Notes under the pieces: model-generated
Database searches by the model: none
Told to the model about the DNA's origin: nothing
What the model saw: only the letters and a program-made list of their open reading frames with translations
In this document: piece by piece, positions 4,473 to 63,920 of the stretch
How positions within the stretch are numbered: position 1 is the first letter of the stretch
How the letters are laid out: every line of letters begins with the position of its first letter
Assembly (NCBI GenBank): GCA_964016885.1
Contig: OZ024743.1
Coordinates: 267,902,001-267,966,000 of the forward strand
Source of the DNA: Eledone cirrhosa
Taxonomy: Eukaryota
Direction: 5' to 3'
DNA length: 64,000 nucleotides
Position numbers and translations under genes: made by a program

Positions 4473-4525
4473 TATATATATTATTCAAAATTTTAATAAA
4501 TGAAAAATATTCGCCTAATCAAAAT

Positions 4526-4594
4526 ATATACTTTATTATATATATTTCAAAGGTACTGTGATATTTCAGTATGTTTTCATCAGACAAAATATAT
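4526..4594 (-). ncRNA. Type I minimal hammerhead ribozyme (inverted copy)
   Basis: Reverse complement keeps CTGATGA...GAAA-TATATA-TA and stem I; 2 transitions relative to the + copy. Confidence 0.78.
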
Positions 4595-4693
4595 GATTTG
4601 ATATATGACATACCACTACGGTCTTGATTATTCAATTCCAGTATTCCAATACTGGAATTGAATAATCAAGACCTTAGCGGTATGTCATATATC

Positions 4694-4762
4694 ATATATT
4701 TTGTCTGATGAAAACGTACTGAAATACCACAGTACCTTTGAAATATATATAATAAAGTATAT
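4694..4762 (+). ncRNA. Type I minimal hammerhead ribozyme
   Basis: ATATATTTTGT-CTGATGA-AAACGTACTG/aaatacca/CAGTACCTTT-GAAA-TATATA-TA^ATAAAGTATAT. Stem I has 11 pairs including 2 G-U, loop III is palindromic, predicted cut after 4751. Confidence 0.82.
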
Positions 4763-4896
4763 ATTTTGATTATGTGAATATTTTTCATTTGTTAACATTT
4801 TGAATATTAAAAACTCCAGGAAAAACCCTTGTTGAGTGCTTCTAATCTATTGTAAAATTGTATTCGTTGAGTAATCAACGAACCATACTAATCTTT

Positions 4897-25074: not shown

Positions 25075-25138
25075 ATATATATATATATATATAGTGACGA
25101 AACATAAGTCAATCGCATGAACTCATAATCCTTTATTC

Positions 25139-25194
25139 ACTGCTATATATATTTCGATGATAGCCATTGAATGGCTATGACCTCATCAGGCAGT
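25139..25194 (-). ncRNA. Type I minimal hammerhead ribozyme in a (TA)n-embedded island (25094-25258)
   Basis: ACTGC-CTGATGA-GGTCATAGCCAT/tca/ATGGCTATCATC-GAAA-TATATA-TA^GCAGT; perfect 5-bp stem I. Confidence 0.85.
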
Positions 25195-25262
25195 TAGTCA
25201 GTTCTTAGATATTCCACTTCTGTGTTTATGGTGTTGATGGTATGAGAACCTTGGGACATATT

Positions 25263-40158: not shown

Positions 40159-40730
40159 TGGCTAGCGCCAATTACTATAATAACGCGCTTTCTAAAGCCG
40201 GTTATCCTGATAAAATCAAATATAGTAAAGAAACAAATTCTAGAAGATCTTACAGTAGAATAATTAATCATGATCATTCCAATAACTTTAATAAAAGACC
40301 TAGATACAAAAACATAATCTGGTATCTCCTTTCTCCATCTCTATTAATAATAATATTCCTAAATTATTCTTTAGTGCCTTAAATAAATGCTTCCCTCCCT
40401 CAGATATCTATAGTAAAATATTTAACAAACACACTATAAAATTTTCATATTCGACCTCCTCCAACATCTCCAACATTATATCTAAACACAACAATAAAAT
40501 ACTAAATACTAAATATCTTCCTTCCAACACTGAATATCATAATAATAGTAATAGTACTCCCGACGTCATTGTAAACTCTAGGCTAATTTCTGCAAACCCA
40601 AATACAATGTCAAACGCAACTTCGTTAAATGCTCTTAATCCCAATCTAAATCAAGAAACTATTATTCCTATCGTAAATAACTTCTCCAATCCAATCCCTT
40701 CTATAGATAACACTAGGTCACTTGTTAATC

Positions 40731-41075
40731 ATCATTCATCATCATCATTTCATTTTACGTCCGCTTCTTCCCTGCTTGCAAGGGTGGGACGGGAACTGAT
40801 TCTGGCTTGATTTCTACAGCTGGATGCCCTTCCTAACACCAACCTAATTTACAGTGAGTGCTGGGTGCTTTTTTGCCGTGGCACCTCCACGACCACTTTA
40901 CAGTGGAATGATAGGGACCCCAGTCCTTATCATCTCATTTCTACAGCTGAGTAAACTGGAGCAATGTGAAATAAAGTGTCTTGCTCAAGGAAACAACACA
41001 TCACCCGGTCTGAGAATTGAACTCACAACCTTTTGATTGCATGGCCAATGCTCTAACCACTAAGCCATGTGCCTC
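40731..41075 (-). mobile_element. tRNA-derived SINE family 2 nested in the Penelope ORF
   Basis: Head TGGCTTAGTGGTTAGAGC..GAGTTCAATTC, core CCTTGAGCAAGACACTTTATTTCACATTGCTCCAG, tail GTTGGTGTTAGGAAGGGCATCCAGC..GGACGTAAAATG(ATG)n; TSD TGTTAATC. Confidence 0.87.
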
Positions 41076-41526
41076 TGTTAATCTCTCTAATCGCAATTGC
41101 AATTGCCCTGTTAAAAATAAATGTCCTCTCAACAACCATTGTCTTGAAAAAAACTTAATCTACGAATGTAAAGTTATAACTGACACCAATTCCTTTACCT
41201 ATTTTGGCTCCACTTCCACCTCCTTTAAAGCTCGTCTTTATAATCATCATTCGTCTTTTAAATACCAACTCAAAAGAACCAACACGGCACTCTCAGTACT
41301 CATATTGTCCTTGAAAGACAAAAATATTAACTATAACATCTCTTGGAAGAAGGTTTTTTCTGCTTCTACATATTTTAACAGTTCTCTATTGAAGACATGC
41401 AATCTCTGTTTATGTGAAAAATTTACCATTATATCTAATTTAGATTCTATAATAAATAGACGCACTGACTTGTTTTCTCTATGCTTGCATAAATTCCACA
41501 GAACATTCCTTAAAGTATACAGCTAA
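41075..41526 (+). CDS. GIY-YIG endonuclease domain of Penelope-like element (fragment of disrupted ORF)
   Basis: CNCPVKNKCPLNNHCL..LIYECKV..YFGSTSTSFKARLYNHHSSF..TALS..LK..ISW..CNLCLCEK..INRRTDLFSLCLH. Confidence 0.88.
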
Positions 41527-42481
41527 TATCTAATACTTTATCAATTTAAAATCCTTTTCTCAAAGGCACATATATATTTCTTTAAAAATATACCCATCTT
41601 TCTACCTTATTTCAATGTTATTTATTATACATTATATAATACTAGTTACTCATTCTATATCAATCCTATTTATCACTTCCCTTACTTTCTATTTTTCTTT
41701 TTCTTTTAATTTCTAACCCCTAATCTGTACCTTTTCTTCCTAGATACTTCTCAATTATCATTGTGCCTAACGTAGAAACAATTATTACTCAGCACAATAT
41801 ATTCTTACTTTATATCACCTTGAAAAAATCCTTCGTAAACATAAACATTTTTTTTACGTTAGATTATTGATCCCCAATTCATTATTTTTTTCTCCCTTTC
41901 ATGCTCATCTAACTTATACATATTACACTTATTCACCCACTCTTCTACTTCTTTCACAATATATCCTTAATTACATTACTATTGCTATATTTTTTATATT
42001 TTATAATAATACATATCAACAATTTCTTTCCATTGCACATATTATTAAACCCTTAAATATTATTCTTAATACATATTAAAAATATCTGTTCATCGCACAC
42101 ATTATTAAACCCTTAAATATACAAACCTTAATTTAACATTATTCTAAATTTTTCTCTTCGTTAATTTTCAAATTCTTTTAATTTATATATTATCTTCCAA
42201 CGGTTTTTCAACCTCTCTATGTAAAACAATATATTTTTCTCAGTTATAAAAGCTATCTCTCTCTATCACCCATCTCTCCTCCTATCTCATCCTTCCTCAT
42301 TATACGCCTCCCCCTCCACTTTTAACTCTCATCTCCTCCTCTTTTTCCTCCTTTCCACCCCAACCCCCCACACTCAAAATTTTTTTCCCAATATCACACA
42401 TCAATCTAAAACTATTTTTCATATGTTGATTTAAAACTGCACTATTCACAAGTGTGTTTTAACCTTCATATCATGTCTCCC

Positions 42482-42552
42482 TATTTTATCTGACGAAAAC
42501 GCATATGTGATTGCATGATGATATTTGTTTTTGAAATGCGCATAATAAAATA
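42482..42552 (+). ncRNA. Type I minimal hammerhead ribozyme at Penelope 3' end
   Basis: TATTTTAT-CTGACGA-AAACGCATAT..ATATTTGTTT(TT)-GAAA-TGCGCA-TA^ATAAAATA; perfect 8-bp stem I, palindromic loop III. Confidence 0.88.
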
Positions 42553-42581
42553 CATGGAACTTTTTAACCATCTTTTGATCT

Positions 42582-42693
<112 letters not shown>

Positions 42694-61466: not shown

Positions 61467-61524
<58 letters not shown>

Positions 61525-61650
61525 AAGTTTTATTTAAATTGTTGGGTTACAACGAGTAAATATTTATAACTGATATAAAAGCACTCAACAAGTATTTGGA
61601 GTATATTTACGATATTAAATAAATGGAAACTATACTTATAAAACCATATT

Positions 61651-61715
61651 TATTTCATTATATATATTTCAGGGAGTCATATTAAAAATATGGTATGCCT
61701 TCCTCAGACAAAATA
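61651..61715 (-). ncRNA. Type I minimal hammerhead ribozyme (inverted copy)
   Basis: Reverse complement of 61867-61932 with core intact. Confidence 0.78.
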
Positions 61716-61866
61716 CAATATAAACAGTCTTATAAATAGATAGATTTGACATACCTTTACGACTTCAACTTCCATTTAAAAATCAACCACCAAATCAACT
61801 TTTTAAATGGAAGTTGAAGTCGTAAAGGTATATCAAATCTATCTATTTATAAGACTGTTTATATTG

Positions 61867-61932
61867 TATTTTGTCTGAGGAAGGCATACCATATTTTTAA
61901 TATGATATCCCTGAAATATATATAATGAAATA
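61867..61932 (+). ncRNA. Type I minimal hammerhead ribozyme
   Basis: TATTTTGT-CTGAGGA-AGGCATACCATATT/ttt/AATATGATATCCCT-GAAA-TATATA-TA^ATGAAATA. Confidence 0.82.
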
Positions 61933-61973
61933 AATATGGTTTTATAAGTATAGTTTCCATTTATTTAATATCG

Positions 61974-62004
<31 letters not shown>

Positions 62005-62009
62005 TTATC

Positions 62010-62048
<39 letters not shown>

Positions 62049-62050
62049 AT

Positions 62051-62259
62051 ACAAAATTAAGGTAAATCAAAATTATGAGTGTCATGCCCCGAAAGGCATG
62101 CGCCATATCACCCGTTAAATAAGCTCCAAGATTCTAATGAATAGGTCCGAGCATTTTATAACAACTAGAAATTGATTAACATATAAATAAACATATGAAT
62201 TAATCCCCTGTGATTGTTCCATATGTTTATTTATATGTTAATAAATTTCTAGTTGTTAA
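62051..62259. mobile_element. (TA)n-embedded fold-back island (arms 62159-62197 / 62220-62258, one-sided tail)
   Basis: TAACAACTAGAAATTGATTAACATATAAATAAACATATG and its near-perfect reverse complement. Confidence 0.78.
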
Positions 62260-62284
62260 ATATATATATATATATATAAAGAAT

Positions 62285-62695
62285 GAATAATAACAGGTAG
62301 ACATCATCAAAAAGGTAATTATTTGCAGAAACTCAATTTTCAAATGCTGCTTCTACGGTTTCCTCAGAGCAGAATTCTGCTCTGAGGAAACGGTAGAATC
62401 AGCATTTGAAAATTGAGTTTCTGCAAATAATTACAAATAATTACCAATTTGCACATAGCATGACTAGGCTGTATAACTTCTGTTGAAACATTTGTAAACA
62501 CTCGGAATAAATTACCTTTTATATGATGTCTACCTGTTATTATTCGGAATACAGAAGGATCAGAAACTGAGTTTCTTGAACTATTCTTCCATAACTCGTT
62601 GAGTAACCCCTCACCGTACGTCAACTCTATCTAGTGTAGTATTTAACCATTACTGCATTCAGGATAATCCTAAGCAGTTCTTGTATAACCTAATA

Positions 62696-62698
<3 letters not shown>
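62285..62698 (+). mobile_element. (TA)n-embedded fold-back island with spacerless palindrome and tail
   Basis: Centre CAGAGCAGAATTCTGCTCTG; outer arms GAATAATAACAGGTAGACATCAT / ATGATGTCTACCTGTTATTATTC; tail with TCGTTGAGTAA as in family A. Confidence 0.78.
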
Positions 62699-62748
<50 letters not shown>

Positions 62749-62891
62749 GAAGTTGTATTTAATTTGTTGGAAATCGACAAATATAAATGTTCATAACTGA
62801 TTTAGAGCTCTCAAAAGATACTGGAGTAAATATTCCATGATATTAAATAAATGGAAACTATATTTATAAAACCATATTTATATTATTATAT

Positions 62892-63074
62892 GGTGGATTG
62901 GCAGTATCGGTAAGGGTCGGACGCCATGCTTTGAAGCATAGAGTTACCTCCCTTTATGATCTGAGTTCAAATCCCGCCGAGGTTAACTTTGCCTTTCATC
63001 CTTACGGGGTCGATAAAATAAAGTACCAGTAATGCACTGGAATAATTGCTGGCCTTGTGCCAAAAGTAGAAACA
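62892..63074 (+). mobile_element. SINE family 1 (full length)
   Basis: GGATTGGCAGTATCGGTAAGG..GAGTTCAAATCCCGCCGAGGTTAACTTTGCCTTTCATCCTTACGGGGTCGATAAAAT; putative TSD ATTATAT. Confidence 0.88.
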
Positions 63075-63171
63075 ATTATATATATTTCAAAGGCAACCAA
63101 CTATCCAGGGAATTTCCGACCGATAAGGTTGAATCTTCGTGGGTAGGTCTTTATTTATAAAACAAACTTTG

Positions 63172-63236
63172 TATTTTATCTGATGAAAGCGCACCAAGGT
63201 TGGCTTGGTTACCCTTGAAATATATATAATAGAATA
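63172..63236 (+). ncRNA. Type I minimal hammerhead ribozyme
   Basis: TATTTTAT-CTGATGA-AAGCGCACCAAG/gttgg/CTTGGTTACCCTT-GAAA-TATATA-TA^ATAGAATA. Confidence 0.84.
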
Positions 63237-63920
63237 AATATGGTTTTATAAATATAGTTTCCATTTATTTAATATCATAGTATATCTATATATATATATA
63301 TAAATTTCCCTATATTTTCGAAACGGAGTCACCAAATTGGAGTTACTGCTCTTCCGCCCACCCTCCCAGTCTTAGGAGAGTAAGTGAAAAAACAATTAGC
63401 TTTAGGCGAGAAATGAAAACACGAAAAAAAGAATGGTGACTACGCCAATTTCTTCTCACCTAACTCCTTCTTTAACGAGACAGCATTTACCAGCAAGTGT
63501 AGAACAGAAACCTGTAACCTTACAAACCATGATTCTGTCATCTTAAGTCAAGTGGCCACTATATCACTGCTGCTTTGTCAAATAAAACATTGAGAGGACA
63601 TACAACGAAATAAACACTACACACAAACGGGCAAAAAACACCCATGCAGACACAGAGACAGACACTGATACTCGGATACACTCACACACACACACACATG
63701 CACACACACACGCGCGCGCACACACGCACAAACACACACAAACACACATATATATTTACATATATGTGTGCGTGTGTTAATATATACATACCCTCTCCTA
63801 TATGTAAATATGTATATGTATATATATATATATATATATATACATCCATCTTGACGTTATAGTCGCATATATGTTATAGAATGCTGTTAGCTTCTCGCTA
63901 AAACAATCTCTATACCTCTC

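Follow-up and report, generated by a model that had tools for sequence, protein, structure and literature searches.

Penelope-like retrotransposons (PLEs) of the Hydra clade are described in PMC8557442 by RWK-like and DKT motifs, a CxCX5C motif, and CxxC and CxH motifs flanking E and N, with no CCHH; their octopus member, Hydra-1_Obim, has a hammerhead ribozyme (HHR) of its own according to the same source. PLE HHRs have been assigned a dimer model (PMC4209133; review PMC6765202). The closing pair G10.1–C11.1 is called highly conserved (PMC4209133); among published HHRs it is a preference. For the Anolis PLE, the experiments described in PMC11167929 are reported to place the tail between two internal sites of RT start; insertion in vitro was normal with HHR mutants, and no ends of RNA-seq reads were seen at the cut site. 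Here we compare with these systems a set of motifs from Eledone cirrhosa (assembly GCA_964016885.1, contig OZ024743.1, positions 267,902,001 to 267,966,000 of the forward strand). This stretch of 64,000 nucleotides is called the window, and its own numbering is used below.

Hammerhead motifs of the window

The preliminary description placed three ribozyme copies at 4694, 61867 and 63172, and the motifs are indeed there, these coordinates being the starts of helix I. The cores are CTGATGA at 4705, CTGAGGA at 61875 and CTGATGA at 63180, each accompanied by GAAA-TATATA-TA and a helix I of 8–11 bp. The type I HHR core CUGANGA...GAAA...UH is present with the cleavage triplet AUA, and helices I and II surround the core, helix I being open. 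The view that such motifs are not due to chance also holds: with helix III TATATA, the pattern CTGANGA-N20-45-GAAATATATATA has 48,589 intact-core matches in the 3.0-Gb genome versus 140 for the reversed pattern. Two other helix III variants, TGCGCA and TRYGTA (the latter searched with two more positions fixed), yield 22,329 and 28,762 intact-core matches, with zero control matches in both cases; the three disjoint sets total about 99,700 matches, or ~33 per Mb. The microsatellites and the SINE tail suggest an octopod-like genome.

In the window, the descriptor scan of both strands detects type I HHR-like motifs at seven places (+4705, -4583, +61875, -61707, +63180, -25189 and +42490), and at -63088 the 3′ half of a motif only. 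The inverted minus-strand partners (4583, 61707 and the half motif 63088), as well as the C·C at position 4 of helix II, had been passed over earlier. The motifs of the 4.6-kb and 61.7-kb loci form foldback pairs, with two HHRs per locus pointing away from each other, arms that agree in 153 of 167 columns at the former and in 170 of 176 at the latter, and (TA)n on either side.

The left arm of the 61.7-kb locus (61522..61782, minus strand) is the element 3′ end of an inverted 5′-truncated PLE insertion. It includes an extra tail of ~80 nt (61522–61601) that adjoins (TA)n, and the stretch 61515–61747 is 97.9% identical to the long 3′ end in loci L012/L013. The type I HHR of this arm (61651..61715, minus strand, core C3 at 61707) has a helix II damaged by a private deletion and a substitution. 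The right arm of the same insertion (61790..61972, plus strand) has the short 3′ end, followed by (TA)n, and carries the type I HHR 61867..61932. Helix I of this HHR is formed by 61867–61874 and 61925–61932, the core is at 61875–61881, and helix II occupies 61882–61912 with C·C at 61885/61909; then follow GAAA (61913–61916) and the palindrome A-TATATA-T (61916–61923), and cleavage is predicted after A61924.

The second inverted PLE insertion starts with a left arm consisting of the tail and 3′ flank (62746..62891, minus strand), delimited by BLAST to related loci and identical to the right arm in 50 of 54 columns. Next to it is an interspersed, putatively SINE-like repeat (62892..63076), which interrupts the minus-strand HHR where cleavage is predicted; of this HHR the 3′ half remains, TTGGTTGCCTTT-GAAA-TATATA-TA (63077..63100, minus strand), with the 5′ core missing. 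The right arm spans about 63100–63280 and carries a plus-strand type I HHR of a second subfamily (63172..63236; core 63180–63186, helix II 63187–63216, predicted cleavage after A63228); its helix II has the C·C (63190/63213) and also a C·A private to this copy (63192/63211). The third insertion of inverted PLE ends (4479..4895) has HHRs at 4583 (minus) and 4705 (plus); in the latter, helix I is 4694–4704/4752–4762 and the predicted cleavage is after A4751. At three separate loci, the window (62892–63076), L050 and L070, a SINE-like repeat is inserted exactly at the HHR TATATATA and the predicted cut, which may reflect a preference for AT-rich targets.

Decay is visible in the window copies: the C·A of 63180 falls at pair II-6, where the inverted partner keeps G, and 61707 has the helix II deletion. 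When the window units are folded alone, the HHR fold is the minimum-energy fold for just one of six. The foldback copies have one HHR per strand, and the transcript of 61522–61975 is predicted to form one hairpin of -270 kcal/mol. Since the read-through RNA would fold into one long hairpin burying the HHR, these copies are probably inert. The near-perfect inverted repeats themselves are ~160–180 bp long (61602–61975 and 4479–4809), and tens of thousands of such foldbacks, if transcribed, could feed long dsRNA into editing or small-RNA pathways.

Four other regions of the window should be mentioned. An HHR of the GGTCATAGCC family (core 25189, region 25075–25260, minus strand) has a G-C-rich 5-bp helix I and also a C·C mismatch. 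The degraded longer PLE at 40167–42600 contains ORF remnants (40167–40504 and 41098–41508), an unrelated insert (~40740–41075) and a TGCGCA-type HHR at 42490. The region 62270–62580 belongs to a separate foldback repeat family and has CTGAGGA at 62382, resembling an HHR core, with GAAA after it. If this is read as GAAA-AT-T-N, the family (1,870 first-look candidates, 40 of them scored) would have G, which is non-canonical, at position 17 in 10 of 11 rows; its locus L184 has a PLE ORF remnant upstream (27% identity). Finally, the repeat at 62050–62258, between (TA)n tracts, has a short GC-rich hairpin at ~62085–62102 and a foldback at ~62160–62258; it matches four fetched loci and no Rfam family at gathering score.

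The carrier element

The carrier, unnamed in the preliminary description, is seen where pairs of motifs 3–4 kb apart flank an ORF (loci L031, L033–L036 and L175–L177). This is a single ORF (L035:2441–4189) with RT followed by a C-terminal GIY-YIG endonuclease. It has 784 homologues among 5,576 candidates, and its atlas neighbours (0.94–0.98) carry HTH_animal, RVT_1 and GIY-YIG; Pfam returns zero families for three pieces of the PLE ORF. The motifs of the Hydra clade are represented by RWR and DKT in L034, and by CNCRDRSKC (CxCX5C), CDLC (CxxC) and CRH (CxH) in L035. CCHH is absent in L035, with one Cys only between IIY and YVG. The pLTRs with HHR, the inverted truncated copy, the tail and the (TA)n targets are all present.

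The subtypes of the window differ in their links to this ORF. PLE ORFs with the 61875 type on their flanks occur in L031 and L033–L035; these ORFs are 81–95% identical to L035. In L036, direct repeats of the 63180 type enclose an ORF that is 51–75% identical by segment. For the 4705 type, one of 29 other loci (L360, extended as L424) has same-strand downstream ORF fragments, 38–49% identical. The candidate link of this type to the ORF comes from this one locus, with no second HHR beyond the ORF fragments of L424, and is weaker.

The 3′ ends fall into two classes: the first (TA)5 past the predicted cut is at 30–69 nt in 154 and at 120–169 nt in 111 copies, together 265 of 322 distinct copies, and both classes are found in all five named subtypes. 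Both are seen at the 61.7-kb locus, the long end on the left arm (from 61522) and the short end on the right arm. The bimodal ends match the optional PLE tail, which in Anolis is bounded by two internal sites of RT start. At L177:1039 and 4729, the long tail is on the inverted upstream copy and not on the 3′ pLTR, which is the reverse of L031, L033 and L034.

Hence we assign the window motifs, by sequence, to terminal repeats of Hydra-clade PLEs as their HHRs. They could instead be retrozymes or SINE-like elements, non-autonomous and replicating through small circular RNAs cut by the HHR, as most window copies are short and have no ORF, and animal retrozymes have type I HHRs for which descent from PLE pLTRs is argued (bioRxiv 10.64898/2026.07.22.740005, in the part available). 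However, the window copies are inverted pairs in (TA)n with variable 5′ truncation, and their 3′ ends are those of full-length PLEs. Moreover, among them there is no head-to-tail tandem array of 170–400 nt units, nor are there the head-to-tail units, each with an HHR, by which retrozymes are recognized. A retrozyme origin is thus very improbable, and the Hydra-clade PLE is retained as the carrier.

Pairing and covariation in the helices

The structural claim had been based on three copies, with stem II called almost unrelated in sequence and stem I said to vary while staying paired. When aligned in register, the 5′ strands of helix II are identical at 6–7 of 10 positions, and the quoted stem II hairpins are not homologous, being differing segments of helix II (about pairs 5–10, 9–14 and 7–12). 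The quoted stem I changes are not compensatory: all are one-sided A<->G changes opposite U. On the other hand, the three core-proximal base pairs (AAA/TTT, AGG/CCT and AAG/CTT), overlooked at that time, do contain real double changes, which among the three named copies are found at II-2, II-3, II-5 and II-9.

Alignment A1 is formed by the three window copies and 43 of 55 cluster medoids. The 12 left out comprised mis-anchored or truncated ones, those interrupted by an insertion or indel, one that probably matched by chance, and the damaged copy at 61707. Pairing is observed in 83.9% of cells versus 68.0% in shuffled alignments, and slid controls do not exceed 51.4%. The covariation score is 0.571 versus 0.272 shuffled (0 of 500 shuffles), in a control that ignores relatedness. 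RNAalifold, unaided, predicts 5 bp of helix I, and for helix II 3+5 bp separated by a 1x1 loop.

Relatedness is taken into account by a tree-aware test that is R-scape-like and not R-scape itself (APC-corrected G-test on variable columns only, no filtering by pairing), with a null in which the substitutions of each branch are re-placed on the same tree, for samples of 194, 69 and 27 rows. In each of the three samples, E is below 0.005 for the pairs II-3 and II-6, the tree being built from short sequences, most loci coming from the start of contig C1 and some helix II letters having been fixed in two copy searches. The E-values in the order of the samples are 0.2, 0.04 and 0.36 for helix II pair 2, 0.04, 0.47 and 1.8 for helix II pair 9, and 0.55, 0.057 and 2.5 for helix I pair 1. 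No helix I pair, and no pair at all beyond II-2, II-3, II-6 and II-9, has E<0.05 in any of the three samples. Thus, the covariation expected in a larger alignment is there for helix II, significantly so under the tree-aware null, but not for helix I (best E 0.057). A tertiary pairing of helix I with helix II, or one involving II-4, was rejected, as no non-helix pair falls below E of about 1.8; the signal between II-4 and helix III was likewise rejected as a tertiary contact, as it follows the single TGCGCA lineage.

For the 13 core-proximal pairs in 194 rows, the changes on internal branches comprise 17 compensatory doubles, 46 singles that keep the pair and 32 that break it, compared to null means of 1.7, 30 and 48, respectively, and a null maximum of six doubles. 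The terminal branches show 6 double, 46 pair-keeping and 131 breaking changes, that is, 131 of 183 break pairs. Compensation on internal branches and breakage on terminal ones point to selection on replicating lineages, with decay of the inserted copies. Hence the stem covariation likely reflects selection on active transposons rather than on the host.

This has to be weighed against an artefact of shared ancestry combined with U-rich stems tolerating A<->G, or host co-option of single copies. The artefact does account for the stem I examples quoted earlier, and helix I fails the tree-aware test, whose tree comes from short sequences; however, the helix II pairs pass a null that keeps both the tree and the substitution counts. 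Chance pairing is also too low: in 54 stretches of viral contigs we found 37 distinct pattern matches, none with HHR pairing, with on average 2.2 of six helix II pairs versus 5.6 in 230 genome copies, and none of the 37 reached 9 of 10 pairs. Co-option disagrees with the breaking majority among terminal changes and with the private lesions of two window copies. The chance that either of these explanations is right seems negligible, and selection in master lineages is supported, as the preliminary description concluded, given the branch counts and the unaided fold, although its own three-copy evidence was weak.

Other features of the class vary in their conservation. Helix III is self-complementary in all four common variants (TATATA, TATGTA, TACGTA and TGCGCA), and its pair covariation, L2–L5, is not significant (E 1.7–5.1). 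The first helix II pair is A-U in 104 and G-U in 55 of 197 rows (together 159), and purine–pyrimidine in 179; with G-C in only 20 of 197, G10.1–C11.1 is not the rule here. Core constancy is partly imposed by the search patterns; in a flank-only search, which gave 26,657 matches, core changes scattered over positions were seen by eye in 9 of the first 100 matches listed. N7 takes all four letters across multi-copy subfamilies. BLAST with the 4705 copy gave 29 copies, whose shared variants are A/G opposite U in helices I–III and changes in the loop and its closing pair. A conserved distal bulge of helix I was rejected as a shared feature, as by eye the distal helix differs between subfamilies. 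Rfam gives nothing at gathering score over the whole window and no hammerhead match at E<=10 over 61500–63350, where only hairpin-driven miRNA-type matches below gathering score are obtained.

The helix II mismatch, proposed mechanism and known systems

Of 137 copies from searches leaving position 4 of helix II free, 131 have C·Y there (96 with C·C, 35 with C·U); four have C·A and two U·C. Over the whole genome, C is the 5′ base in 81,631 matches, versus 3,531 with some other letter (95.9% C). The C·Y mismatch persists in families whose endonucleases are only ~30–50% identical to L035, and no covarying partner for it was found. Among 78 metagenome loci of related PLEs (L262–L339), 40 have an HHR; none of the 32 distinct motifs has C·Y at this position, and 31 are paired there. 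The helix III of these metagenome Hydra-type HHRs is of the 6–8-nt C...G type, with loops such as CAGATCTG and CTCAGAG. C·Y is also absent from the 26 Hydra rows of Craig File S2, including Hydra-1_Obim, a table whose descriptor may not admit a mismatch (PMC8557442). In a quick tree of the endonuclease region, built without named references, a single branch (SH-aLRT 92; not starred; long branches) divides the 25 own-genome rows from the 66 of the metagenomes.

The occurrence of HHRs in PLEs, those of the Hydra clade among them, has been published, as has their covariation; it is the near-invariant C·Y mismatch that is new here. Among the papers listed on ribozymes and on octopus or cephalopods, Craig et al. 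2021 alone joins the two subjects. A literature search for a C-C mismatch in hammerhead stem II found no paper, with the proviso that the class may be contained in the figures or supplements of Cervera 2014, Lunse 2017 or the 2026 retrozyme preprint. It is conceivable, although we would not count on it, that these HHRs form a distinct subclass in which the obligatory C·Y 1x1 loop is a new tertiary contact or protein dock replacing the loop I–loop II interaction. If so, about 100,000 copies would constitute a natural mutational scan. A non-core position held as firmly as the catalytic core is a testable lead on the activation or recognition of weak dimer-type HHRs.

Overall, we are fairly confident that the motifs are type I HHRs of Hydra PLEs, with a fold likely kept by selection in the masters, and that they likely self-cleave as dimers in the full-length RNA. 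The calculated energy of helix III is +4.7 kcal/mol as a monomer hairpin versus -2.2 to -10.5 as a dimer duplex for the four common variants. Since the hairpin is too weak, two same-strand HHRs of the tandem pLTR-ORF-pLTR transcript would pair via the 8-nt self-complementary helix III, which fits the dimer model for PLE HHRs; same-strand pairs able to dimerise do exist, e.g. in L036. The cut after AUA would then trim or regulate the element RNA. For reverse transcription, the start may lie beyond an uncut 3′ HHR, at either of two internal positions some 50 or 140 nt after the cut site, and the addition of a truncated inverted copy at the 5′ end would produce the foldback insertions in (TA)n seen in the window. 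An essential role of the HHR in insertion is counted against, because the Anolis HHR mutants inserted normally in vitro.

The same Anolis result, that cleavage is not needed for insertion in vitro (PMC11167929), bears on an alternative that we consider unlikely: selection in the masters would keep the fold chiefly as a signal that binds or positions the PLE RT/endonuclease (setting the internal start sites of RT, for instance), while cleavage would be weak or dispensable. This alternative agrees with the two fixed distances of 3′ ends from the HHR in all five named subtypes, with the poor in vitro cleavage of minimal PLE HHRs (PMC4209133), and with C·Y being as constant as the core, yet at no known catalytic position. 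On the other hand, the rarity and scatter of core changes among the matches listed, with N7 free between subfamilies, fit catalysis, as does a helix III that stays self-complementary from TATATA to TGCGCA. Self-cleavage as dimers remains the preferred reading.

As far as the cited sources describe them, three groups of systems may be compared with the present one. The Hydra-clade PLEs of Craig et al. 2021 (PMC8557442) are alike in the C-terminal GIY-YIG, the RWK-like, DKT, CxCX5C, CxxC and CxH motifs, the (TA)n targets, the HHR near the 3′ end, the inverted 5′-truncated copies and the optional tail. However, in the 26 Hydra rows of File S2 helix III opens as A-C...G-U, whereas here it is A-URYRYA-U, and the tail is about 90 nt compared to 30–40 bp described for PLEs (PMC8557442). 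Unlike the minimal or small PLE hammerheads of Cervera and De la Pena 2014 (PMC4209133), the HHRs described here have no unpaired base after A9 and no conserved G10.1–C11.1, and instead have the 1x1 C·Y loop at position 4; the number of copies is about 100,000 versus about 9,000 HHRs quoted for Xenopus (PMC4209133), with 126,247 HHRs in axolotl (PMC7229834). The non-LTR retrozymes (PMC7229834) share type I HHRs and very high copy number, the amphibian ones being dimer-dependent, but they are head-to-tail repeats yielding 170–400 nt RNAs, whereas here we see truncated inverted PLE ends. With many families and about 100,000 copies, the function of PLE HHRs is testable by RNA end mapping in this animal. 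As covariation in PLE hammerheads is expected and published, the finding is largely ordinary: this is a real selected structure in a known kind of element, set apart from the described ones by the C·Y mismatch, the AU-rich helix III and the copy number.
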